22,850 nucleotides of DNA from Planctomycetales bacterium (lineage in GTDB: Bacteria > Planctomycetota > Planctomycetia > Planctomycetales > Planctomycetaceae). The DNA is taken from contig JACRIH010000533.1 in assembly GCA_016235885.1 (NCBI GenBank), positions 1 to 22,850 on the forward strand, in the 5' to 3' direction. This document shows positions 1-22,500 of the stretch, piece after piece; within the stretch, counting starts at the first letter, position 1; each line of letters opens with the position of its first letter. The notes below the pieces were generated by a model that saw only the letters and a program-made list of their open reading frames with translations, was not told where the DNA came from and searched no databases. The position numbers and the translations under genes were made by a program.

Positions 1-46
1 CCTGCCTTTGAAGCAGTGAATGGAGGTTCGATTCCTTCTCCCCGAA
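1..46 (+). tRNA. tRNA-Gln (anticodon TTG), 5' end cut by the window edge
   Basis: Anticodon stem-loop ctgc-CTTTGAA-gcag with U33. T-arm GGAGG-TTCGATT-CCTTC. Acceptor 3' strand tctccccga. No encoded CCA. Confidence 0.7.
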
Positions 47-91
47 CTTGCGAACTTGCGACTGGCAGCGTGTGTCAAATGTCGCGAACAC

Positions 92-166
92 TCCGGGGCG
101 GTTGCTGCTGGTAGCAACGTCTGGCTCTGAACCAGAAGGTCGTTGGTTCGATTCCAACCCCCGGAA
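92..166 (+). tRNA. tRNA-Gln (anticodon CTG)
   Basis: Acceptor tccgggg/ccccgga is fully complementary. Anticodon arm tctgg-CTCTGAA-ccaga. T-arm GTTGG-TTCGATT-CCAAC. Length 75 nt. Confidence 0.8.
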
Positions 167-170
167 TTGA

Positions 171-243
171 AGGCAGAAGGATGAAATCGCTCGTGACCCC
201 AACCACTCGCCAAACGTTCATCCTTCATCCTTCTGCCTTTTTT
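171..243 (+). terminator. Inter-tRNA hairpin followed by a T5 run (terminator-like or processing element)
   Basis: 15-bp perfect inverted repeat aggcagaaggatgaa / ttcatccttctgcct (171-185 and 224-238) with a 38-nt loop. Followed by ttttt immediately before tRNA-Ser. Confidence 0.35.
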
Positions 244-329
244 GGAAGTCATCCGGCCGGATGAGGGACCTGTCCCGAAAACAGGTGGCGAGTTGAACTC
301 GCTTGTGGGTTCGAGTCCCACGGCTTCCG
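244..329 (+). tRNA. tRNA-Ser (anticodon CGA), class II with long variable arm
   Basis: Acceptor ggaagtc/ggcttcc. Anticodon arm cctgt-CCCGAAA-acagg. Variable-arm hairpin gcgag-ttgaa-ctcgc. T-arm GTGGG-TTCGAGT-CCCAC. Position 33 reads as C, which is atypical. Confidence 0.65.
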
Positions 330-519
330 CTGAACAAGGGCTCATGGTCCAACAGCAAGACGTCGGTCCTGCAAACCGGAGATTCGGGTGCAACTCACGG
401 TGGGTCCATTTTGAAGAGTTGAAGAGTGAAGGGCGAAGGGTGGAGGGCGAAAACAAAGTTGGGCAACCACGTCGTGGTACGCTTCGTGTTTTTCATTCTT
501 CTCACTTCACTCTTCATCC

Positions 520-591
520 GGTCCCGTGGTCCAGCGGCGACGACTTCTGGCCTACACCCAGACAACGATGGTTCGAGTCCATCCGGGATCA
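520..591 (+). tRNA. tRNA-Val (anticodon TAC)
   Basis: Acceptor ggtcccg/cgggatc (one G-U pair). Anticodon arm tctgg-CCTACAC-ccaga. T-arm GATGG-TTCGAGT-CCATC. 3-bp D-stem; C at position 33. Confidence 0.65.
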
Positions 592-599
592 TATTGATT

Positions 600-673
600 G
601 TCCTCGCGGAGCAGCTCGGAATGCTCGCCACCCTGTCACGGTGGAGACGTGGGTTCAAATCCCATCGAGGACG
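600..673 (+). tRNA. tRNA-Asp (anticodon GTC)
   Basis: Acceptor gtcctcg/cgaggac. D-stem gagc/gctc. Anticodon arm ccacc-CTGTCAC-ggtgg. T-arm GTGGG-TTCAAAT-CCCAT. Confidence 0.8.
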
Positions 674-696
674 TTTGGTGATGTGATATGTGATTC

Positions 697-778
697 GCGT
701 CGGCTGGGCATCGGCGTGCCCAAGTGGCCGTAACCCACCCGCCTTCGGGCAATGCAGGTTCGACTCCTGCTCGACGCA
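697..778 (+). tRNA. tRNA-Tyr (anticodon GTA), long variable arm
   Basis: Acceptor gcgtcgg/tcgacgc. D-stem gggc/gccc. Anticodon loop CCGTAAC. Variable arm gcc-ttcg-ggc. T-arm GCAGG-TTCGACT-CCTGC. Confidence 0.65.
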
Positions 779-785
779 TTGTTTC

Positions 786-858
786 GGCCCGTTCGTCTAT
801 TGGTACAGGACGCCAGCTTCTCACGCTGGCAAGGCGAGTTCGATTCTCGCACGGGTCA
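786..858 (+). tRNA. tRNA-Glu (anticodon CTC)
   Basis: Acceptor ggcccgt/acgggtc. D-arm gtctattggtacaggac resembles canonical tRNA-Glu. Anticodon arm ccagc-TTCTCAC-gctgg. T-arm GGCGAG-TTCGATT-CTCGC. Confidence 0.8.
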
Positions 859-938
859 TCTACGAGTATTTGTGTAGCCCCTGCCCTCGTGGCCGGCACA
901 AGGCCGGCGGCTACGACGGCCAGATTGATGGAAGATTC

Positions 939-1021
939 GACCGAGTGGTGAAATTGGTAGACACGCGACGCTCAGAACGTCGAGCCGTCAAGGCATGGGA
1001 GTTCGAGTCTCCCCTTGGTCA
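939..1021 (+). tRNA. tRNA-Leu (anticodon CAG), class II
   Basis: Acceptor gaccgag/cttggtc. D-arm tggtgaaattggtagacac is typical of tRNA-Leu. Anticodon arm cgacg-CTCAGAA-cgtcg. Variable-arm stem gcc/ggc. T-arm GGGAG-TTCGAGT-CTCCC. Confidence 0.85.
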
Positions 1022-1106
1022 TCGTTATCGACGCAGGTGAGCCAGTGCTCAGCCGAGGCTCATAACCTCAGCCCGCCGGGTGCGACCCCCGGACCTGCCA
1101 CTTGCC

Positions 1107-1176
1107 GTAGGTCAGGCTTTCCAGCCTGACTCGTTGGGCTGTCAACACACAGGTCAGGCTGGAAAGCCTGACCTAC
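1107..1176. repeat. Nested-palindrome (BIME-like) element between tRNA-Leu and tRNA-Ser
   Basis: 24-bp arms gtaggtcaggctttccagcctgac / gtcaggctggaaagcctgacctac are exact reverse complements with a 22-nt spacer. Each arm also contains its own 8-bp palindrome gtcaggct..agcctgac. Confidence 0.6.
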
Positions 1177-1190
1177 GACAAGATCCTCTC

Positions 1191-1276
1191 GGAAGGTAGC
1201 CGGATACGGTTGGCCGGGCCGCACTGCTAACGCGGCTCTCGTCACTGAGATGAGGGTTCGAATCCCTTGCCTTCCG
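1191..1276 (+). tRNA. tRNA-Ser (anticodon GCT), class II
   Basis: Acceptor ggaaggt/gccttcc (one G-U). D-stem ccgg/ccgg. Anticodon loop CTGCTAA. Variable-arm stem tctc/gaga. T-arm GAGGG-TTCGAAT-CCCTT. Confidence 0.75.
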
Positions 1277-1380
1277 CTGAATGTTTGTTTCGTGACATGG
1301 TGTTCGTGGTGTACCGGTGTGCATGCGACTCTGTGAAAGTCGAGGCGGTGGGTTCAACTCCCCTCGAACACCCTGCTGTG

Positions 1381-1490
1381 AATGATGAATTTCGAATGAC
1401 GAATGACGAACCGGCACCGATGCCGTTCGAGCATTCGACATTCGTCATTCTTTCGTCATTCGGATTTCGTCCTTCGTCATTCCCCCACAG
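1381..1490. repeat. Inverted blocks of tandem decamers GAATGACGAA ... TTCGTCATTC (copy 1)
   Basis: Left block gaatgacgaatgacgaa; right block ttcgtcattctttcgtcattc...ttcgtcattc, in opposed orientation. Lies immediately upstream of the HNH gene start. Confidence 0.7.
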
Positions 1491-1497
1491 GTGCATC

Positions 1498-2091
1498 ATG
1501 TCGGCGGTTCTTACTCGACCAACGCTCGTGCTCAACCGGAACTGGCAACCGGTGGGTGTGGCCTCGGTGTCGCGCTCGCTGATCCTGTTGTGGAACGACA
1601 ACGCGCGCGTGGTCGATCCGGCGGACTTCCGGCTGTACACGTGGAGCGATTGGTCGCGAATGATTCCGCTCGCGGATGAACCGTTCATCCAGGCGGTTCG
1701 GTCGCGGCTGCGGGTGCCGGAAGTGATTTCGCTGACGAACTTCGACCGCGTTCCGATGAACGGGGTGACGTTCAGCCGGCGGAACATTTATCGGCGTGAC
1801 CGTTACACGTGTCAGTACTGCGGTTCGCAGCCGGGGAGCGAAGAACTGACGATCGATCACGTCCTGCCGCGGGCGCAGGGGGGAACTTCGATGTGGGAGA
1901 ACTGTGTTCTCGCATGCGTCGCTTGCAACAAGCGCAAGGCCGACCGCACGCCCGAACAGGCGCACATGCCGCTGCACAAGCGGCCGGTTCGTCCCTCATG
2001 GAAGCCGCACTACGCCACGCGCGGAGTCCGGATCGACAGTTGGTCCCGCTTCCTCAGTGAAGCGTATTGGAATGTGGAACTGAATGCGTAG
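1498..2091 (+). CDS. HNH endonuclease (COG1403 / McrA-like), 197 aa
   Basis: Translation starts MSAVLTRPTLVLNRNWQPV, the N-terminal motif typical of this family. C-terminal motif CQYCGS...LTIDHVLPRAQGG...WENCVLACVACNKRK has the C-X2-C...DH...N...C-X2-C arrangement. AGGTG lies 7 nt upstream of the ATG. The long ORF in the track begins inside the repeat/tRNA region and was trimmed. Confidence 0.85.
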   Translation: MSAVLTRPTLVLNRNWQPVGVASVSRSLILLWNDNARVVDPADFRLYTWSDWSRMIPLADEPFIQAVRSRLRVPEVISLTNFDRVPMNGVTFSRRNIYRRDRYTCQYCGSQPGSEELTIDHVLPRAQGGTSMWENCVLACVACNKRKADRTPEQAHMPLHKRPVRPSWKPHYATRGVRIDSWSRFLSEAYWNVELNA

Positions 2092-2109
2092 CGGAAAGCT
2101 TTCAGCAAT

Positions 2110-2171
2110 CAGCGGTCAGCGATCAGCCAATCGGTTGAGGCTGACTGTTGAAAGCTGATCGCTGACCGCTG
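2110..2171 (+). terminator. Long hairpin downstream of the HNH gene
   Basis: 18-bp perfect inverted repeat cagcggtcagcgatcagc / gctgatcgctgaccgctg around a 26-nt loop. There is no clear U-tract, so function as a terminator is uncertain. Confidence 0.35.
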
Positions 2172-2175
2172 CCAC

Positions 2176-2245
2176 ACGAGTGTGCTCCTGGGAGAGCCAG
2201 TGGTCTCCAAAGCCGCTTCATGAGGTTCGAATCCTCACACTCGTG
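2176..2245 (+). other. Degenerate tRNA-like element (possible tRNA pseudogene or integration-site remnant)
   Basis: Perfect acceptor pairing acgagtg/cactcgt and canonical T-arm TGAGG-TTCGAAT-CCTCA. No canonical anticodon arm can be folded, and the element is only 70 nt long. Confidence 0.4.
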
Positions 2246-2248
2246 CTG

Positions 2249-2296
2249 TTGGAGTCCCGGCTTCAGCCGGTCTGCCGCCTGAAGGCGGGACTCCAA
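2249..2296 (+). other. Compact three-way-junction structure following the tRNA-like element
   Basis: Outer stem ttggagtc/gactccaa encloses two hairpins, ccggc-ttca-gccgg and ccgcc-tgaa-ggcgg. Confidence 0.35.
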
Positions 2297-2299
2297 CCT

Positions 2300-2373
2300 G
2301 CCGACGTGGCTCGACTGAGAAAGGCATCTGTCCCGTAAACAGACTCATGCTGGTGCGAATCCAGTCGTCGGCT
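2300..2373 (+). tRNA. tRNA-Thr-like (anticodon CGT), non-canonical D-arm
   Basis: Perfect acceptor gccgacg/cgtcggc. Anticodon arm tctgt-CCCGTAA-acaga. T-arm GCTGG-TGCGAAT-CCAGT (G at position 54). D-arm cannot be folded canonically and position 33 is C. Confidence 0.5.
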
Positions 2374-2394
2374 CTTGGTTCAAAGTTTGTTTTG

Positions 2395-2512
2395 GGAGTG
2401 CTCCGGCTTGACGGAGCTTTGGAATTTTTTGCGAAGCACTTTCGCCATCCTATAGAAACGGAAAGAAAGTCGCTCCGCGACAATTCCAAAGCTCCGTCAA
2501 GCCGGAGCACTC
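2395..2512. repeat. MITE-like palindromic element with 32-bp perfect terminal inverted repeats
   Basis: ggagtgctccggcttgacggagctttggaatt (2395-2426) is the exact reverse complement of 2481-2512. Interior carries hairpins gcgaa..ttcgc and GTCGCTCCGCGAC. This element generates the mirror-image ORFs 2347..2598 (+) and 2235..2672 (-). Confidence 0.75.
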
Positions 2513-2518
2513 CAAAGT

Positions 2519-2589
2519 TGCCCTGCGGGTGTGCCGGAAGCATGACAGACTTCGAATCTGTCGGACGAGGTTCGATTCCTCGGTGGGGT
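2519..2589 (+). tRNA. tRNA-Arg-like (anticodon TCG), weak acceptor stem
   Basis: Anticodon arm acaga-CTTCGAA-tctgt. T-arm CGAGG-TTCGATT-CCTCG. Acceptor gccctgc/gtggggt needs three G-U pairs and the D-arm is poor. Followed by tttttt. Confidence 0.45.
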
Positions 2590-2599
2590 GTTTTTTGAA

Positions 2600-2670
2600 C
2601 GTCCTCGGAGTGTGGTGGATGCATGCGACCGTGCGAAGGTCGAAGATCAGGTTCGACTCCTGACGGGGAC
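2600..2670 (+). tRNA. tRNA-Arg-like (anticodon reads GCG, unusual)
   Basis: Acceptor gtcctcg/cggggac. Anticodon arm cgacc-GTGCGAA-ggtcg. T-arm TCAGG-TTCGACT-CCTGA. D-arm has G-U pairs; anticodon GCG is not a standard bacterial Arg isoacceptor. Confidence 0.45.
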
Positions 2671-2719
2671 ATCCGTGTTCGATCCGTGTTTCATCCGTGG
2701 CAAAAAAACAATTCCTCCC

Positions 2720-2791
2720 GACGCTGTTGCCGGATGGTCCGGCCACTGTCTGCAAAGCAGTTCTTCGTGGGTTCGATTCCCACCGGCGTCT
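2720..2791 (+). tRNA. tRNA-Cys (anticodon GCA)
   Basis: Acceptor gacgctg/cggcgtc. D-stem gccg/cggc. Anticodon arm actgt-CTGCAAA-gcagt. T-arm GTGGG-TTCGATT-CCCAC. Confidence 0.8.
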
Positions 2792-2801
2792 TCAAGGAAA
2801 A

Positions 2802-2842
2802 GTAGGGTGGGACCAGCTCGCGAAGCGAGTGCAGGCCCACCA
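2802..2842. repeat. REP-like unit GTAGGGTGGGAC..GAAGCG..GGCCCACCA (single copy)
   Basis: Same motif order as the palindromic dimer at 8206-8290. Contains a ctcgc-gaa-gcgag hairpin. Confidence 0.55.
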
Positions 2843-2992
2843 TTGCCGAGATGATGATTCGTCATGACCAGACACGAGCAATTTCAAGCAAGGTTGACGC
2901 AGCCGGGCCAGCGGCGCATCAAGACCTGTCCTGTTCGCAGGCGGTTGTCCGAATGTGTTCCGCGAGTGGGTTCTAACGAAGGCTGTGTCGGC

Positions 2993-3065
2993 GAGTGGTT
3001 AGCTCAGTGGGTAGAGCACCAGACCGTGAATCTGGCTGTCACAGGTTCGACTCCTGTACCAACTG
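2993..3065 (+). tRNA. tRNA-His-like (anticodon GTG), imperfect acceptor stem
   Basis: Perfect D-arm agctcagtgggtagagc. Anticodon arm ccaga-CCGTGAA-tctgg. T-arm ACAGG-TTCGACT-CCTGT. The acceptor strands gagtggt/accaact have two adjacent mismatches. Confidence 0.5.
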
Positions 3066-3480
3066 CGGTGTGAAAAACCGCTCCAAAACGCGAAAGCGTT
3101 TACCAACCGGCCCGACGGTGGCGGGCGAATGATTGATCTGCGGATGCTTCGTTGATGTGCTCTCGTAATTGAGTGCTGCTCGACGTCGGCCGAAAGGCTG
3201 GCGGATGAGTCAGCGGATTGCGGGCCGTGCATCGCGAACATCGGCAACGTGACGGTTTGCTTTGCAGGGCGTGGATTCAGCCATCGCAAATTTCGGACAG
3301 ACGGTCGTGGATGCTGGTCGGACGCTCGCGTGACATTTGTCCGCGAGCGACAAAACCAGACGAAGCGACCGAACCTCCGCAGCTCGCGATGGCTCAAACG
3401 TCTCTCCGCATCCCGGCGCGGGATTAACAATCGTTTCGCCACCTGACGGCAATTCAACTTCCTCTCCACAGCGGGGGAGA

Positions 3481-3660
3481 GGACGGGAGTGGGGAATGAC
3501 GAATTCCGAATGACGAATGACGAATGAATGACAAAGCTCGAATGACGAACACGAGCCTTCACTTCGAGTTCACTGCCTGAATGCGTCACCGGCGAATTCG
3601 GCATTCGGCATTCGTCATTCGGAATTCATTCGTCATTCGTGCTTCCGCCATTCGTCATTC
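3481..3660. repeat. Inverted blocks of tandem decamers GAATGACGAA ... TTCGTCATTC (copy 2)
   Basis: Left block has four or more gaatgacgaa-like units; right block has cattcgtcattcg units in opposite orientation. Upstream of the SPFH gene. Creates the HSSFVI-repeat artefact in the minus-strand ORF 2999..3604. Confidence 0.7.
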
Positions 3661-3671
3661 CACACCGCCCC

Positions 3672-3707
3672 TCACCCCCGACCCCTCTCCCCCAAAGGGG
3701 AGAGGGG
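3672..3707. repeat. REP-like hairpin CCCTCACCCCCGACCCCTCTCCCCC-aaa-GGGGAGAGGGG (copy 1)
   Basis: Stem cccctctcccc / ggggagagggg. A near-identical copy lies at 19474-19509. Its 3' arm, ggagaggggagaag, sits directly before the SPFH ATG and acts as a Shine-Dalgarno sequence. Confidence 0.65.
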
Positions 3708-4897: not shown

Positions 4898-4995
4898 GCG
4901 GCTACGTAGCCATCACGCTCCGCGTGATGAGCCGAATGGCCAATCGACGTCGCATCCCGATTCGGCTCGTCACGCGGAGCGTGACGGCTACGTTA
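4898..4995. repeat. Nested-palindrome element with CGCTCCGCG core (family copy A)
   Basis: Left arm ggctacgtagcc-ATCACGCTCCGCGTGAT-gagccgaat. Right arm attcggctc-GTCACGCGGAGCGTGAC-ggctacgt. The arms are imperfect reverse complements and each arm is itself palindromic. Confidence 0.65.
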
Positions 4996-5787: not shown

Positions 5788-5853
5788 GTAGCCACGCTCG
5801 CCAAGAGCGTGGGTTTTCCGCGATTTTCCCCACGCTCTTGGCGAGCGTGGCTA
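5788..5853. repeat. 26-bp perfect inverted repeat, nested-palindrome type, upstream of nuoH
   Basis: gtagccacgctcgccaagagcgtggg and cccacgctcttggcgagcgtggctac are exact reverse complements with a 14-nt T-rich spacer. Each arm holds an 8-bp palindrome ccacgctc..gagcgtgg; the left one is followed by gttttcc, giving a terminator-like hairpin. Confidence 0.7.
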
Positions 5854-5892
5854 CCCCGAGATCAATGCGGTTACACTTGGCAAAGGTGAAGT

Positions 5893-7891: not shown

Positions 7892-8204
7892 GATGGAAGG
7901 CGTTGGACTGACCGAATACCTCGTCGTGGCGGGCATCCTGTTCGTGAGCGGCGTCGTTTGCATGGCGACCAAGCGCAACGCGATCGGCGTGCTGATGGGT
8001 GTCGAACTGGTGCTGAACGGTGCGAACGTCAACTTCGTCGCCTTTTCGCGATACACCAAGCTGGGTTTGGATGGGCAAGTGATCTCGCTGTTCGTGATCG
8101 TTCTGGCTGCCGCCGAAGCGGCGGTCGCGCTCGCCATCGCCCTCAACTTTTACAACAACCACCTGACGATCGACGTCGATCGAGGCGACGAATTGAAGGG
8201 TTGA
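7892..8204 (+). CDS. nuoK: NADH-quinone oxidoreductase subunit K (NuoK/ND4L)
   Basis: MMEGVGLTEYLVVAGILFVSGVVCMATKRNAIGVLMGVELVLNGANVNFVAF is a classic NuoK. Start moved from 7857 to the ATGATG at 7892, which follows GGAGA. Confidence 0.85.
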
Positions 8205-8205
8205 A

Positions 8206-8290
8206 TGTAGGGTGGGACAAGCGAAGCGCTGGCCCACCAAACGCAAAACATCACGATGGTGGGCCTTCGCTTCGCTTGTCCCACCCTACA
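8206..8290. repeat. Palindromic dimer of the GTAGGGTGGGAC..GGCCCACCA REP-like unit, between nuoK and nuoL
   Basis: tgtagggtgggacaagcgaagcg (8206-8228) is the exact reverse complement of 8268-8290. The inner pair ggcccacc / ggtgggcc extends this to an 85-bp near-perfect palindrome. Confidence 0.7.
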
Positions 8291-17177: not shown

Positions 17178-17236
17178 GTAGACGGGTCACTCCGTGATCC
17201 GAACTTCCGGTCACGGAGTGACCGGTCTACATTCGC
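17178..17236. repeat. Palindromic element GTCACTCCGTGA-N12-GTCACGGAGTGACCGGTCTACATTCG (intergenic copy)
   Basis: 20-bp inverted repeat gtagacgggtcactccgtga / tcacggagtgaccggtctac with one mismatch. A second copy lies at 21941-21998 inside a coding sequence. Confidence 0.7.
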
Positions 17237-17337
17237 CGCCACCCATTGTCTTGCCAAGCTATCGCACCGGTCGCGAATGGAGAAGTGAGCGGCCTGGCTT
17301 GGCTTGTAATCTGGACGAAGCCCGCCAGAATCACGCC

Positions 17338-18132
17338 ATGCTTGACCGTGACATCCTCATCACCGGCGAATCTGTGCGGCAGGCGTGCCGCTGTGGTCGC
17401 CTTGTGGAACAAACGTCGGGGCTGGCTCCCGGTTTCGCGCAGGCCAACCTTGTGGTGTTGCCGCGCGACGAGGCGTACGATTTCCTGCGGTTCTGCCGAG
17501 CCAACCCCAAGCCGTGTCCGCTGCTGGACGTGACCGAGCCGGGCGACCCCACGCCGCGACAGGTGGCTCCGACTGCGGACCTCCGCACCGATCTGCCACG
17601 CTACCGCGTTTGGGAGCACGGCCAATTGGTGGAGGAACCGACGGACATCATGCGCTGGTGGCGCGACGATCTGGTGAGTTTCGTGATCGGCTGCTCGTTC
17701 ACGTTCGAGGCCGCGTTGCTCCGCGCCGGCGTCCCCGTCCGGCACATCGAACTGGGACGGAACGTGCCCATGTATCGCACGAACATTCCCTGTCAGCCCG
17801 CCGGACAGTTTCACGGACCGCTCGTCGTGTCGATGCGTCCGCTGCGGCCGGCCGATGCGATCCGCGCCGTACAAATCACGTCGCGCTATCCGTCCGTCCA
17901 CGGCGCTCCGGTGCATCTCGGCCTGCCCGAGCAGATTGGAATCCGCGACCTGTCGCACCCCGACTTCGGCGACGCCGTGCCCATCGCGGACGACGAACTC
18001 CCCGTCTTCTGGGCCTGCGGCGTGACTCCCCAAGCCGCGATCATGTCTGCTCGCCCCCCGTTCGCGATCACCCACAGCCCCGGCTGCATGTTCGTGACCG
18101 ATGTGTTGGATGAGACGCTCGCGGTGGGTTGA
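17338..18132 (+). CDS. Putative hydro-lyase (DUF1445 / UPF0317; D-glutamate-cyclase-like), 264 aa
   Basis: [46 protein letters not shown] closely matches the DUF1445 conserved core as recalled. Start at ATG 17338. Confidence 0.75.
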
Positions 18133-18166
18133 AGTCGAAGGGTGGCTCGATTATGGGATTCTCCTC

Positions 18167-18712
18167 ATGTTTCAGAACACGCTAACGCAAAGTTGGGGTC
18201 CGGTCCTTCGCCGCGTTCTGGTCGGAATCGTATTGATTGGTGTAGCGGTTACCGCTGGCTGTAAGGCGCAACATCGGAACCGCTTCAAGTACCAATCTGG
18301 GCCACTTGGACTACACACCAGCTACCACGGATTGTGGCGAATGTCTTCGGGCGGTGACGAATTACTGCACTTTGTGATATTTCCCCCAATGAGTGCGCAC
18401 AGACTCCACGGCACCGCGGGATACGGAAGCACCCCATCGGCACGTGGAATATCATCGTTCCCGGAAGGACTATTTGTTGATGGAACGCAGGTCGCGACGG
18501 ATGACACCCAGCGTGTCTTTGTTTTGACGTCTGAGAACACGATGCGCAGTGTGTCACTGACGAGCAGCGAACTTTCGGAAGTCCGCTCCGATTCAATATC
18601 GCGTCTTCGGAATTCCGTGGTGTGGAAGCAAAAGATTCGCCCGATCGTCGAGGAGGAAGGTGATCGCTGGAAGGCATCAATGCAACCAGTGACTCGTCGC
18701 GAAATCAGGTAG
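18167..18712 (+). CDS. Hypothetical lipoprotein (lipobox VTAGC), 181 aa
   Basis: MFQNTLTQSWGPVLRRVLVGIVLIGVAVTAGC fits an n-region, h-region and L-x-x-C lipobox. The gene looks AT-richer than its surroundings. No clear SD. Confidence 0.5.
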   Translation: MFQNTLTQSWGPVLRRVLVGIVLIGVAVTAGCKAQHRNRFKYQSGPLGLHTSYHGLWRMSSGGDELLHFVIFPPMSAHRLHGTAGYGSTPSARGISSFPEGLFVDGTQVATDDTQRVFVLTSENTMRSVSLTSSELSEVRSDSISRLRNSVVWKQKIRPIVEEEGDRWKASMQPVTRREIR

Positions 18713-18753
18713 AGTGGGCCGATCAGTCGTGCTCATGGCGGCGTTGACGAAAC

Positions 18754-19113
18754 CTACCAATTCGGGTTTCGAGTCAGTTCCACCGTCCGCACGCCGTAGT
18801 CGATTTCGAGGCGGTGCGGTTTGAGCATGTCGGTGCCGAGGAGGCAGAGCTTGCCGGGGCCGATCATCACACGCACAAGTGTCGGCTCATCAAACCAGTT
18901 CACGACAACCATGAACGTGTCGTACATGGCGGTGTGTTCGTCCGCCAATTCGGCTTTCACGTCACCGGCCGGAGTGCCGCATGACGGGTCGAATAGTTCG
19001 GTGCCGACGATCAACGTGCCGGAAAAGCCCGTGTCGATTTGAAAGTCGAGCGGTGCGCCGCCGAACTGAACCGTGAGGAACGCCTGGTCCAGTTCATCCA
19101 GAAAGCCGTGCAT
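18754..19113 (-). CDS. Retropepsin-like (clan AA) aspartic protease, 119 aa
   Basis: Catalytic motif LDFQIDTGFSGTL (D-T-G-F) about 27 aa from the N-terminus, with a downstream hydrophobic-G-hydrophobic pattern typical of single-lobe retroviral-type proteases. GGGGGA lies about 10 nt before the ATG. Confidence 0.75.
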   Translation of the reverse strand: MHGFLDELDQAFLTVQFGGAPLDFQIDTGFSGTLIVGTELFDPSCGTPAGDVKAELADEHTAMYDTFMVVVNWFDEPTLVRVMIGPGKLCLLGTDMLKPHRLEIDYGVRTVELTRNPNW

Positions 19114-19363
19114 GGCGAATTGGTCCCCCGATCTTCACGGCCGCACCACCGCCGACTCGAAAGATATGCACCAGTTTCGCCCCGAATTTCGGCTGACAGG
19201 CTGCATCGAGTTCCCAAAAGTCTTTGCCCAGCACGTAGTCGCCCGAATCCGGTTCCACCGCGATGAGCTTGCCGAGGTGGTCGGGTTCGAGGACTTGCTT
19301 CAATCGCTCTGCGTACACTCGTTCGGCTCGCGAGGCGAATTCGTCGCGCTCAGATTTTGTCAT
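19094..19363 (-). CDS. Small hypothetical protein (89 aa) overlapping the protease gene start by 20 nt
   Basis: ORF MTKSERDEFASRAERVYAERLKQVLEPDHLGKLIAVEPDSGDYVLGKDFWELDAA... GAGGT lies 9 nt before the ATG. Its 3' end overlaps the protease ATG in the +1 frame. Confidence 0.5.
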   Translation of the reverse strand: MTKSERDEFASRAERVYAERLKQVLEPDHLGKLIAVEPDSGDYVLGKDFWELDAACQPKFGAKLVHIFRVGGGAAVKIGGPIRHARLSG

Positions 19364-19473
19364 CGTGATCGACCTCGAAGGAACGTGACCAGACTCGGAT
19401 CAAGCCGCAGGCAGTCTCTTGCTGATTGGCGATTTCGGCAAGGGCAAATTGGCGACTGCACATCGTGCCACGC

Positions 19474-19509
19474 TCCCTCACCCCCGGCCCCTCTCCCGGG
19501 GGGAGAGGG
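19474..19509. repeat. REP-like hairpin CCCTCACCCCCGGCCCCTCTCCC-ggg-GGGAGAGGGG (copy 2)
   Basis: Near-identical to 3672-3707. Lies 10 nt beyond the DUF1501 stop codon. Confidence 0.65.
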
Positions 19510-19518
19510 GAGGAGATG

Positions 19519-21039
19519 TTATGCCAACAACTCTTGGATCACGTGCCCATGCACGTCCGTCAACCGGCGGTCGATGCCGTTGTGGCGTAACGTCAGCTTC
19601 GTGTGGTCGATCCCCAGCAGGTGCAGGATTGTAGCGTGGATGTCGTAGACTTCGGTGGGGTTGTCGCGGTCCAGCGGCTTGTAGCCCCATTCGTCGCTCG
19701 GGCCGTGGGTGATGCCTCCCTGGATGCCGCCGCCGCACAGCCAGTTCGTGAAGACGTACGGATTGTGATCGCGCCCCTTGCCTCCTTGCGACGATGGCAT
19801 TCGGCCGAATTCGGTCGTCCAGTGGATGATCGTGTCGTCCAGCAGGCCGCGTTGTTTGAGATCCTGAATCAACGCGGCGGCGCCGCGAGCCATCCCCATC
19901 GCCAGCGGGCCGTGGTCTCGTTCGACGTCTTCGTGCGAATCCCAATTCCGGCGCGGGAAGCCGTTGTCGTTGCCCGAGTAGACCTGAATGAAGCGGACTC
20001 CGCGTTCGAGCAGCCGCCGGGCGACAAGGCACTTGCGCGAGAAATAGTCGATCTCCTCGATCGGGTTGATCTCTTTGTCGAACTCCGTCTTGCCGTGATC
20101 GAGGCCGTACAGTTTGAGGACGTGCTGCGGTTCCTGCGAAATGTCGAGCGCTTCCGGCGCGGCGAGTTGCATCCGGGCCGCGAGTTCATAGCTGCGGATG
20201 CGGGCGTCGAGTCGTTCGTCATCGTCGCGACCGGCAACGTGCAGGCGGTTCAGCCGGCCGAGCAGTTCAATTCCCACCGTTTCGCTCTGCCGTGTGATGA
20301 AGTCTCCCTGCTTCGCGGGGAACAGGTCGGCGATGGGCGTCTCGCGGCCGGGGAAGATCACCGTCCCCTGATGCTGCGCCGGCAGGAACGCGCTGTCCCA
20401 ATTCTTCGTCCCGTTCGAAGCGAAGCCGCGGTGATCGGGCAGCACGACGAACGTCGGCAGGTTTTCGTTCAGGCTGCCGAGACCGTAGCTGATCCAGCAG
20501 CCCATCCCCGGAAAGCCCGGTCGATTGAAGCCGGTGGTTTGCAGCAGCGTCCCCTGACTATGCACGCCCGTCTTGCCGACGACGTTGTGGACGAACGCGA
20601 TGTCATCCACAACCTTCCCGAGTTCCCCCACCACGTCGCTGAGCATCTTGCCGCACTGGCCGTACGGTTTGAAATCCCACACCGGTTTCAACCACGGTCC
20701 CAGCCCGTTCTGAAACGCCTCGACAGGCTCCCCAAAATCGGACGGCTGACCGTGGTGCTTGATGAGCGCGGGCTTGAAGTCGAACAAGTCGAGAGGACTC
20801 GCGGCCCCGGCCATGAAGAGTTGGATGACTCGCTTGGCGCGGGGTGCGAAGTGTGGCTGTGGTGAGTTTGAGGGCGTGAGAGTGCGAGGGTTTGGGGTAG
20901 AGTCGCCGGCGCGGAGTCGATCGTCGTTGAGGAGACTCGCCAGCGCGATCGCACCCAGGCCGCCGCCGGAGTTCCGAAGGAACTCGCGACGTGAGTGTGA
21001 ACTGTCCCCCGCCTGGCTGTGCCAAAATGAACGCTGCAT
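19519..21039 (-). CDS. DUF1501 domain protein (sulfatase-like fold) with twin-arginine signal peptide, 506 aa
   Basis: N-terminus MQRSFWHSQAGDSSHSRREFLRNSGGGLGAIALASLL carries a Tat motif. C-terminal GRDHNPYVF...HATILHLLGIDHTKLT...RLTDVHGHVIQELL is the DUF1501 signature. GAGGT lies 8 nt before the ATG. The upstream ORF extension to 21201 was rejected. Confidence 0.85.
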   Translation of the reverse strand: MQRSFWHSQAGDSSHSRREFLRNSGGGLGAIALASLLNDDRLRAGDSTPNPRTLTPSNSPQPHFAPRAKRVIQLFMAGAASPLDLFDFKPALIKHHGQPSDFGEPVEAFQNGLGPWLKPVWDFKPYGQCGKMLSDVVGELGKVVDDIAFVHNVVGKTGVHSQGTLLQTTGFNRPGFPGMGCWISYGLGSLNENLPTFVVLPDHRGFASNGTKNWDSAFLPAQHQGTVIFPGRETPIADLFPAKQGDFITRQSETVGIELLGRLNRLHVAGRDDDERLDARIRSYELAARMQLAAPEALDISQEPQHVLKLYGLDHGKTEFDKEINPIEEIDYFSRKCLVARRLLERGVRFIQVYSGNDNGFPRRNWDSHEDVERDHGPLAMGMARGAAALIQDLKQRGLLDDTIIHWTTEFGRMPSSQGGKGRDHNPYVFTNWLCGGGIQGGITHGPSDEWGYKPLDRDNPTEVYDIHATILHLLGIDHTKLTLRHNGIDRRLTDVHGHVIQELLA

Positions 21040-21114
21040 GATGAAACCTCGTGACGGTGTATTTCGTTCGTTTTTGGAGTGCGGCGGCTTGACGCCGCAT
21101 TTGTTTATTTTTGG

Positions 21115-21138
21115 CATGACAAGATTGCGGTTGTCATG
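21115..21138. promoter_or_regulatory. Operator-like palindrome CATGACAA-N8-TTGTCATG upstream of the DUF1501 gene
   Basis: 8-bp perfect inverted repeat centred about 85 bp upstream of the start codon. An adjacent AT-rich tract (tttgtttatttttgg) and the gcggc-ttgac-gccgc hairpin lie nearby. Confidence 0.35.
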
Positions 21139-21144
21139 ACTGTT

Positions 21145-21355
21145 GCCCCAACGGGGCGCAATTCGATAGCCCAGGGCGCAGCCCTGGGTTGGCAGTTGCA
21201 TCCATCACACGAGCCCCAATGGGGCGCAATATTGGGGATTCCCATATCCTCGACTGCGTCCTCACGCGAATTTCGCCCCGTTGGGGCTATCGCACCAATG
21301 ACCGCCGTTACCCAGGGCTGCGCCCTGGGCTATCGAATCGCGCCCCTTCGGGACT
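21145..21355. repeat. BIME-like cluster of GC-rich hairpins between the DUF1553 and DUF1501 genes
   Basis: 25-bp perfect inverted repeat gatagcccagggcgcagccctgggt (21165-21189) / acccagggctgcgccctgggctatc (21310-21334). Four small hairpins GCCCC-NNN-GGGGC lie in alternating orientation. Confidence 0.7.
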
Positions 21356-21378: not shown

Positions 21379-22500
21379 TCAATCCACAAAAACAAATTCA
21401 TTCAAATTCAACAGCAGCCGGCAAGTGTTGGCCAATCCGTGCTCGCGGGCGTACGTGGTGAGTTCCCGCAGTTCGTCGTCTGTCGGAGGCCGGCTGAGGG
21501 CGAGGCGAAACGCTTGCGTCACCTGTGACAAAATGTCTCCGCCGGGTTTCTCGACTCGGGCGGCGAAATGCTTCGACATGACCACGGTGAGCTGGTTGTT
21601 CAGGAGCGCCAGCGCTTGCAGAGGGGTGATCGTTTGCGTGCGCTTGTCGACCAGCATCGACGGATCGGCGCAGTCGAGCGTGGTCATGAACGGCTGCAAC
21701 TGCGAGCGGACGAGGAACCGGTACACCGACCGGCGATGCGATGCGGGATCGTCCGCGTTGTACAGGTGATATTCGTAGTGCGGCGAGTGCTCGGGCTTGT
21801 CGATCACGAAGTCCTGGAAACTCGGGCCACCGAGCGCGGGGTTGAGCTTGCCGCTGACGGACAGAATCGCATCGCGGATCGCTTCGGCTTCCAGACGCCG
21901 GCGACTTTGTCGCCAGAGGAAACGGTTGTCGGAGTCCAAAGTAGCCGCGTCACTCCGTGACGCGAGTTTCGGGTCACGGAGTGACCCGTCTACATTCGAC
22001 GACTGCCGATACGCCGCGCTCGTCACAATCAGTCGGTGCAGTCGCTTGATCGACTGGCCGCCGTCGCGGAATTCGCTGGCCAGCCAATCGAGCAGTTCGG
22101 GGTGACTCGGCAACTGACCCATTCGGCCGAAGTCGTTCGGCGTGTCCACGAGGCCGTGGCCGAAGTGGTAAAGCCAGACGCGGTTCACGATCGATCGCCA
22201 CGTCAGCGGGTTCTGCGGATCGGTCAGCCACTTCGCGAGGGCGGCACGGCGTGCCCCTTCTGCGTGATCGCTCGGCAGGTTGAATCGAGCCGGCAGCGCG
22301 GCCACCACGGTCAACGCTCCCGGTCCGGCTTCCGCTCCCGGCTTCGTCACGTCTCCGCGCGGCAGGAGGTGAATTGGTCTCGGCTTGCCACCATTCGCTC
22401 CGGTGCCAGAGAAGGCTCCCGAGCCGTGATGGATCGTGCCCGCGAACACGAGGCGCGGCGGAGGCAACTTCGATCCAGCCCAGTTCCAGGCACAACGCAT
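21379..22500 (-). CDS. DUF1553 (PSD1) domain protein, C-terminal part only; appears N-terminally truncated and is possibly a gene remnant
   Basis: LAKWLTDPQNPLTWRSIVNRVWLYHFGHGLVDTPNDFG...HPELLDWLASEF...IKRLHRLIVTSAAYRQSS and the C-terminus LLNLNEFVFVD match DUF1553. There is no PSCyt1/DUF1549 part. Upstream the same frame reaches a stop at 22579-22581, and the other minus frames read as low-complexity sequence. Confidence 0.65.
   Translation of the reverse strand: MRCAWNWAGSKLPPPRLVFAGTIHHGSGAFSGTGANGGKPRPIHLLPRGDVTKPGAEAGPGALTVVAALPARFNLPSDHAEGARRAALAKWLTDPQNPLTWRSIVNRVWLYHFGHGLVDTPNDFGRMGQLPSHPELLDWLASEFRDGGQSIKRLHRLIVTSAAYRQSSNVDGSLRDPKLASRSDAATLDSDNRFLWRQSRRRLEAEAIRDAILSVSGKLNPALGGPSFQDFVIDKPEHSPHYEYHLYNADDPASHRRSVYRFLVRSQLQPFMTTLDCADPSMLVDKRTQTITPLQALALLNNQLTVVMSKHFAARVEKPGGDILSQVTQAFRLALSRPPTDDELRELTTYAREHGLANTCRLLLNLNEFVFVD
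21941..21998. repeat. Second copy of the GTCACTCCGTGA...GTCACGGAGTGACCCGTCTACATTCG element, embedded in-frame in the DUF1553 coding sequence
   Basis: Matches 17178-17236 over about 40 of 46 aligned positions. On the minus strand it is translated as [18 protein letters not shown]. Confidence 0.65.

Follow-up and report, generated by a model that had tools for sequence, protein, structure and literature searches.

A widespread gene pair coding for a small protein and a retropepsin-like protease: a candidate mobile toxin–antitoxin-like cassette from Planctomycetales

The DNA we have analyzed, called the window here, is a contig of 22,850 bp from a metagenome-assembled genome (MAG) of Planctomycetales. 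It contains two overlapping genes on the minus strand: The first codes for a small protein of 89 amino acids, the second for a single-lobe retropepsin-like aspartic protease of 119 amino acids. The main result is that, in one large branch of the stand-alone prokaryotic retropepsin-like proteases, the protease gene always comes with one particular small gene, and the two together behave like a selfish element. We propose, with moderate confidence, that the segment 18754–19447 is an autonomous, horizontally mobile cassette of the toxin–antitoxin type, with a selfish or defensive role. In this cassette the protease would be the toxin and the small protein its inhibitor. What we say about function is based on genomic patterns: the overlap of the genes, their strict pairing, the number of copies, their presence in plasmids, their varied contexts and a decay which affects one gene only.

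Pairing, distribution and layout of the cassette

A scan with an alignment of the protease, using one genome per species for 185,579 species, gave 34 loci. All loci, most of which come from MAGs or metagenomes, were searched with hidden Markov models of both proteins. The protease is clearly intact in 19 of the loci found in this way, and the small gene is found directly upstream and in the same strand in all 19. Some of these paired proteases, from Acidobacteriota and Chthonomonadales, are only 24–33% identical to that of the window. Three less complete loci are also paired, including another Acidobacteriota MAG and a Methanosarcinales archaeon, and three further look-ups starting from the protease agree. 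A scan of metagenomes starting from the small gene gave intact pairs in 12 of 15 loci. The pair is thus found in four bacterial phyla (Planctomycetota, Acidobacteriota, Armatimonadota and, in plasmids, the cyanobacteria) and in one archaeon. According to the original prediction, a lack of relatives of the 89 amino acid protein next to retropepsin genes elsewhere would have counted against it. In fact, a homologue lies directly upstream wherever we have found an intact homologue of the protease. A distant member of the small family, P0123, is found in a 1 kb contig, in which an overlapping downstream gene is truncated by the end of the contig.

A search of plasmids with the small protein (tblastn) matched six cyanobacterial plasmids. 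In the three that we have inspected, a hypothetical gene of 105 amino acids overlaps by 4 nt a protease gene of 121 amino acids, named "retroviral-like aspartic protease family protein" in RefSeq in one of them. The plasmid pairs adjoin integrase or transposase genes (tyrosine recombinase or IS200/IS605), and the plasmids are mobilizable or conjugative. Some of the carriers are cultured strains: Tolypothrix PCC 7712 (plasmid of 42 kb, protease homologue WP_045875016), Gloeothece PCC 7822 and Nostoc commune HK-02 (plasmid of 41 kb).

The two genes are also found fused. Protein P0201, with 313 amino acids, has two small domains followed by one protease domain. Small domains in tandem, duplicated or triplicated within a single protein, have been observed in many proteins, among them P0113, P0125, P0131, P0148, P0153, P0158, P0174, P0181 and P0232. 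They may give a hint about the stoichiometry of a complex. A third conserved gene was considered and rejected: Among 125 neighbouring open reading frames (ORFs) from 24 loci, which gave 156 Pfam families, none of the families is present in more than three loci.

The three ORFs of the original prediction, which are the two genes of the pair and a convergent neighbour of 181 amino acids, are found at the places described, and the small gene does extend 20 nt into the protease gene (Table 1). This overlap suggests translational coupling. All intact pairs have kept the overlap or an abutment of the genes. In planctomycete copies, the small gene stops 4–40 nt beyond the start of the protease gene; in distant loci, it stops within about 35 nt on either side. 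The G5 tract that had been noted is also present (19125–19129, 11 nt upstream of the protease ATG) and is a putative Shine-Dalgarno site for the protease gene. The same tract codes for part of the KIGG motif, which is conserved in the small protein, so its conservation should not be credited to ribosome binding alone.

The similarity between the window and the independent loci L007–L010 at the DNA level extends from the stop codon of the protease (18756) to about position 19447, where it ends. These limits define the real unit, about 700 bp long (18754–19447), with both genes and a conserved upstream block. An alignment of this upstream block shows conserved segments, and relatives carry a short inverted repeat, GATTGG...CCAATC. 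A direct repeat, ATTGGCGA, is found in or near the block, at 19425–19432 and 19448–19455. Scans for an intrinsic terminator or a sigma-70 promoter of the cassette gave nothing above chance.

Table 1. Features of the cassette and its neighbour. Positions refer to the window, except in the last line, where they refer to the plasmid.
Feature	Position	Strand	Remarks
Small-protein gene, 89 amino acids, cytoplasmic	19094–19363	−	NCBI HZA46_22125, 'hypothetical protein'; proposed inhibitor/antitoxin
Single-lobe retropepsin-like aspartic protease gene, 119 amino acids	18754–19113	−	NCBI HZA46_22120, 'hypothetical protein'; proposed toxin/effector
Overlap of 20 nt, end of small gene and start of protease gene	19094–19113	−	
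Upstream block of about 85 nt, candidate promoter/operator	19364–19447	−	Travels with the cassette
Gene for 181 amino acid signal-anchored or lipobox protein, convergent neighbour	18167–18712	+	Within a 203 amino acid ORF, 18101–18712
Segment differing from L049 (about 93% identical)	18151–19040		Blastn of window against L049
Paired small gene and retropepsin in L068, Tolypothrix sp. PCC 7712 plasmid unnamed7	16774–17453		L069 and L070 are the further inspected plasmids

Copies, contexts and decay

Several MAGs carry from two to four copies of the cassette or its remnants. Remnants are common; in most of them, what is left is a 3' part of the protease gene that lacks the start codon, and some contain stops or frameshifts. 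The contexts are varied. For example, the copy in L001 is found in a run of toxin–antitoxin genes (PIN, PemK, helix-turn-helix and DUF433), and the copy in L006 adjoins a PIN_3 pair.

A few copies, in planctomycete lineages, are found beside cas (CRISPR-associated) genes. In L002–L005, the pair or a remnant lies between cas4-cas1/cas2 and I-U-like effector genes (Cas_GSU0053). In L044, the pair is next to cas4-cas1/cas2 of an I-U-like CRISPR-Cas locus. We have also observed that the remnant in L026 lies beside ORFs which resemble Cas2 and a Cas4-Cas1 fusion, from a reading of the sequences by eye. These cases might suggest an accessory pair of CRISPR-Cas systems, acting in adaptation or interference, similar to the retropepsin-domain 'Asp_prot' genes linked to type III systems in Sulfolobales (described by Vestergaard et al. 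2014, PMC3973734), and the protease has a weak match to the PEPT_D model of PADLOC. The proteases in L005 and L044 are only about 55% identical, which would agree with such an association. We find this explanation very improbable. We find no cas genes near the cassette in the window, nor in more than 30 further loci, and toxin–antitoxin modules often lodge in CRISPR loci without taking part in their function. Two of the three CRISPR loci have a broken protease, with a frameshift in L002–L004 (the L005 allele is intact) and only a remnant left in L026.

In L006, L045, L029, L032 and L034, as well as in the window (19519–21201), the cassette or what remains of it has a DUF1501 gene at a distance of a few kb at most, often together with a PSCyt/PSD1 gene. 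DUF1501 appears to be very abundant in Planctomycetota, so this proximity may be due to chance.

The two genes do not decay in the same way. The small gene is intact and its protease partner damaged in L001 (the catalytic region is lost by an internal deletion), L002–L004 (frameshift), L049 (replacement) and L057 (deletion). In L008, found by the scan starting from the protease, the small gene is intact too, and an in-frame stop codon interrupts the protease. Of the 18 distinct loci to which the small gene led, 4 have a broken protease, and no broken small gene is found in the 19 loci whose protease is intact (one-sided Fisher test, p = 0.046, for small samples obtained in searches seeded with these patterns). 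Such one-sided decay is what we would expect from a harmful second gene which is neutralised by the first one.

Decay also bears on two other explanations. In the first one, the polarity would be reversed: The small protein would be the toxin, and the protease an enzymatic antitoxin which cleaves it, in a manner similar to type VII systems. The toxin gene comes first in some toxin–antitoxin families, enzymes acting as antitoxins have a precedent in type VII systems, and the conserved C-terminal motif of the small protein might be a cleavage site. Nevertheless, a toxic small gene left without a working protease would be lethal or counter-selected, and it is intact in L001, L002–L004, L008, L049 and L057. 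Of all the explanations we have considered, this one seems to us the most remote.

In the second one, the pair would be an obligate enzyme with two subunits and no toxicity, carried by mobile DNA and with a dispensable function in some niche; the small protein would be a structural, activating or targeting subunit. The strict co-occurrence, the conserved order and overlap and the P0201 fusion all agree with such an enzyme, many of the contexts are ordinary genes, and the proteins with small domains in tandem could match a protease dimer. But decay should then strike either gene, and only the protease has been found broken beside an intact partner, with the p value given above. The copy number and the load of remnants per genome are also high for a niche enzyme. 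We consider this explanation unlikely.

The two proteins and their possible function

The D-T-G motif reported for the protease is intact (D27-T28-G29, followed by F30). Among 27 homologues, D27 and T28 never change, and G29 hardly ever does. A profile made from these homologues matches solved retropepsins in the PDB: SASPase with an expectation value (E) of 6.5e-4, and also the protease of human immunodeficiency virus 1 (HIV-1). The AlphaFold2 (AF2) model has a pLDDT (predicted local distance difference test) of 91.2 and a predicted template modelling score (pTM) of 0.82. Its top match in a Foldseek search of the PDB is APRc from Rickettsia (5c9f, E 3.5e-6, probability 1.00), followed by a long list of proteases from HIV-1 and feline immunodeficiency virus (for HIV-1, E about 3e-5 and TM 0.6–0.7). 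Both the profile and the predicted structure lead us to consider the retropepsin fold and the catalytic motif of this protein as established; activity and dimerisation are predictions. No membrane segment or signal peptide is visible in its sequence.

The closest curated family is TIGR03698 (clan_AA_DTGF). The protease of the window matches it with E 2.1e-9 and 37.7 bits, below the curated cut-off of 57.35. It is thus a relative of this family, in a divergent planctomycete branch, and not a member by the NCBI rule. Two paired homologues, from Acidobacteriota and Chthonomonadales, with 61.1 and 70.9 bits, are above the cut-off. The Pfam gathering thresholds are not reached either by the protease of the window (PF13975, 16.8 against 28.2 bits; PF13650, 14.9 against 24.3 bits). 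The homologue in the Tolypothrix plasmid passes that of PF13975, with 30.1 bits.

The 89 amino acid protein does not match any of the curated families searched, which include Pfam, NCBIfam and PADLOC. Its own family is not small: We have found 37 close homologues, and an exhaustive profile search gave 954 cluster representatives at E ≤ 1e-3. The only Pfam family which is touched at all is DUF5678 (PF18929), matched by 3 of 46 relatives with a best E of 0.039, far below the threshold; the protein of the window does not match it at E ≤ 1. DUF5678 also consists of short proteins with no assigned function, and the link to it is faint. The predicted model (pLDDT 77) has a long N-terminal helix, followed by a beta-beta-helix-beta-beta arrangement and a disordered tail. 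We have not found a solved structure related to it. The best conserved part is the C-terminal FRVGGGAAVKIGG, upstream of the overlap.

Another possible explanation is a processing module. The small protein would be a dedicated substrate or precursor, and the protease would trim or cleave its conserved glycine-rich C-terminal region and in this way mature it or regulate it. The best conserved part, FRVGGGAAVKIGG, is indeed followed by the disordered tail, and the pairing and the fusions found in nature would be just as compatible with an enzyme and its substrate. This explanation is prompted by RimB (PMC11957791), a cytoplasmic bacterial retropepsin with one specific tail substrate and a partner enzyme. 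On the other hand, genes for an exporter, a modifying enzyme or a receptor are not conserved in the vicinity, no downstream role is apparent for a processed protein of 80 amino acids, and in at least five loci the protease has been lost and the small gene has remained intact. Multiple copies, plasmids, rapid decay and turnover between strains would not be expected in a cellular maturation pathway. This is the main alternative to our proposal, but we think it rather unlikely.

The original prediction had left the choice between a toxin–antitoxin-like module and a processing module. A mobile toxin–antitoxin-like cassette is the alternative best supported by genomic behaviour, and the lipoprotein gene and the bounding repeats of the islet that had been proposed should be left out of it. 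In such a cassette, a single upstream promoter would drive both genes, and the 20 nt overlap would couple translation of the protease to that of the small protein. The cytoplasmic protease would form homodimers, as other retropepsins do, to build its active site. The 89 amino acid protein would bind it and keep it inactive, either by capping the dimer interface or by placing a conserved beta-strand flanked by glycines (GGGAAVKIGG) in the substrate cleft. Once the small protein is lost or titrated, because the element has been lost or because of stress or infection, cellular proteins would be cleaved by the protease, and arrest or death would follow. We suggest, more tentatively than the cassette itself, that the pair represents a widespread class of bacterial and archaeal toxin–antitoxin or abortive defence systems that has not been described, and of which it would be the first example: a retropepsin toxin held in check by a small protein with a new fold, through blocked dimerisation or as a pseudo-substrate.

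Several observations weigh against a toxin–antitoxin-like cassette. In the sample of genomes, the surroundings mostly consist of ordinary genes for metabolism or housekeeping and not of defence islands. The asymmetry in decay is of borderline significance and corresponds to few events, and strict pairing would also be expected of an obligate enzyme with two subunits. Binding, inhibition, toxicity, trigger and substrates are all things that we infer from the genomes. We have not recognised a DNA-binding domain in the small protein, and it does not resemble any known antitoxin. Apart from PEPT_D (E 0.0022), neither protein matches any known model of a toxin–antitoxin or defence system. No toxin described in the searchable literature as part of a toxin–antitoxin system is an aspartic protease, so the proposed toxic mechanism is without precedent. 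As to mobility, a search of plasmids with the protease gave no match for this subfamily at E 1e-3, and IMG/VR viral contigs contain no copy that could be detected with the protease alignment or with a broader alignment of the small protein. A viral origin of the pair, which we had considered, was rejected after these scans.

The original prediction had noted the lack of any defence-system signature. This agrees with our searches: In PADLOC, the protease matched only PEPT_D, weakly, and the small protein had no match, and PHROGs gave nothing meaningful. The full-text literature, as far as it is searchable, does not describe the pair or a toxin–antitoxin interpretation of it. Aspartic proteases are not mentioned in the main text, supplements aside, of broad toxin–antitoxin surveys or of the NetFlax paper.

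The cassette may be compared with several known systems. It resembles type II toxin–antitoxin systems (VapBC, RelBE, MazEF), which are also small operons of two overlapping genes, the smaller and neutral one first. They are also found in multiple copies, in plasmids or islands, with a patchy distribution across phyla, and they erode in such a way that the first gene outlives the second. The cassette differs in its putative toxin, an aspartic protease instead of a nuclease, kinase or similar enzyme, and in its putative antitoxin, in which no known DNA-binding fold is recognised. The cassette has no sequence or profile match to a catalogued family.

Other comparisons concern the protease. The TIGR03698/AF_0612/COG5550 peptidases have the same single lobe of about 120 amino acids, the D-T-G-F motif and the retropepsin fold. 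An obligate small partner gene has not been described for them in the searchable literature, and the protease of the cassette has one. Rickettsia conorii APRc (5c9f), the best structural match, is the soluble domain of a membrane-embedded protein which processes autotransporters. It differs from the protease of the window, which has no visible membrane segment or signal peptide and is only 14–18% identical. RimB, from the RimABK system of Pseudomonas, is also a stand-alone cytoplasmic retropepsin with an adjacent partner gene, a horizontal distribution and fusions, but its partner is the glutamate ligase RimK, and its substrate is the poly-glutamate tail of RpsF (PMC11957791). There is no rimK or rimA gene at the cassette, whose partner is the 89 amino acid protein without an assigned fold. 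Asp_prot, or PEPT_D in PADLOC, is a protein of about 100 amino acids with a retropepsin domain found in CRISPR-Cas loci (PMC3973734), and the match of our protease to it is weak (E 0.0022). It has no reported partner gene, its hosts and CRISPR type are different, and most copies of the cassette are not close to cas genes.

Stand-alone prokaryotic proteases similar to retropepsins (COG5550/TIGR03698) have been known from genomes for some 20 years, and to our knowledge almost none of them has a function. The only published statement that we have found on the family is that 'little is known' about prokaryotic single-domain clan AA peptidases (PMC2642776). The pairing described here provides the family with a concrete hypothesis which may be tested. 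The new elements would be a class of effector without precedent among toxin–antitoxin-like modules and a partner that is unclassified. If our proposal is correct, aspartic proteases should be added to the effectors of toxin–antitoxin and defence systems, and a natural protein inhibitor of a protease of the retroviral type would have been identified. Since the pair is present in plasmids of cultured cyanobacteria, experiments are feasible without the uncultured planctomycete.

Surroundings of the cassette in the window

The original prediction described the region 18140–19400 as an islet with a low GC content, bounded by repeats and possibly of foreign origin. The mean GC content of the window is 59.9%, and the region as a whole has a value of 0.569 (4.4th percentile). 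The 181 amino acid gene has a GC content of 0.542, and 0.571 at third codon positions (GC3), which corresponds to the 1.4th percentile among windows of the same size; the clear genes within the window have GC3 values of 0.75–0.79. The GC3 of the small gene is intermediate (0.611), and that of the protease gene (0.767) is typical of the host. Since the 181 amino acid gene is poor in GC and the protease gene is similar to the host, the islet is essentially the 181 amino acid gene alone. The low GC content is thus confirmed for this gene and not for the protease gene, whose composition does not appear to be foreign.

The repeats do not bound the region either. The two elements proposed as borders are unrelated palindromes. 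The first one, 61 nt long (17178–17238), has a second copy at 21941–22001, 4.7 kb apart and with 85% identity, and it is not paired with the hairpin at 19474–19509, which has its own relative at 3684–3705. Neither of them matches any of the boundaries found by genome comparison: The variable DNA covers 18151–19040, and the cassette 18756–19447. We have therefore rejected these repeats as island borders.

The variable DNA is defined by comparison with L049, a locus with about 93% identity at the DNA level. It shares with the window the DUF1501 gene, the small gene, with proteins that are 96% identical, and the beginning of the protease gene (25 codons). The borders of the comparison are 18150/19041. 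In place of window positions 19040–18151, L049 has a gene of 354 amino acids with a faint SIR2_2 match (L049 6548–7612), where the window has codons 25–119 of the protease and the 181 amino acid gene. Further on, the end of the D-Glu cyclase gene is repeated over 155 bp, and a restriction-modification system of the PvuII type is found before cyclase homology resumes. Another close relative, L067, has kept the 181 amino acid gene, the protease and the small gene. It contains a different insert, with a gene of 205 amino acids, flanked by a duplicated cyclase end. The 3' end of the D-Glu cyclase gene is duplicated, over 155–190 bp, in these two relatives; the regions concerned are 17949–18150 in the window, 8060–8214 and 10086–10942 in L049, and 1921–2114 in L067. 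This comparison indicates a hotspot which varies between strains, and the site, just after the stop codon of the cyclase, looks like a target of site-specific integration. The SIR2_2-like gene and the restriction-modification system give the site in L049 the appearance of a small hotspot for defence genes.

The 181 amino acid gene had been proposed as a lipoprotein gene of the islet. It has only two homologues, and outside the window it adjoins the pair only in L067. None of the other lineages examined has it next to the pair, which makes it a local neighbour and not a partner; we have therefore rejected it as a member of the cassette. The lipoprotein label may hold for the window copy only, which has an RR, a hydrophobic stretch and the lipobox VTAG|C. 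The homologues have not kept the cysteine: It is replaced by arginine in P0256 (80% identical) and is absent in P0257 (42%).

Some other features of the window may be mentioned. A GC-rich hairpin, CCTCTCCC-N-GGGAGAGG, is found twice (19490–19508 and 3684–3705), with a chance expectation of zero. The copy at 19490 lies directly after the stop codon of the DUF1501 gene and is kept in L049. It is possibly a terminator, or else a repeat element. Many other intergenic hairpins of 26–60 nt are found, for example, at 1101–1182, 2392–2516, 4904–4993, 5788–5854, 8206–8290 and 21147–21352. The palindromes in the window suggest families similar to REP (repetitive extragenic palindromic) or MITE (miniature inverted-repeat transposable element) sequences.

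The first part of the window (1–3066) contains 15 transfer RNA (tRNA) genes in the plus strand, among which tRNA-His(gtg), Ser and Arg are each present twice. Blocks of a heptamer repeat, GAATGAC/ATTCGGC, are interspersed with the tRNA genes at about 1380–1485 and 3494–3660, and are mutually inverted. Finally, the D-Glu cyclase ORF (17194–18132, 312 amino acids) has its listed GTG start inside the palindromic element. Its Pfam domain covers residues 161–303, and the genes of its relatives code for 264 amino acids. The true start is probably an ATG near 17338.

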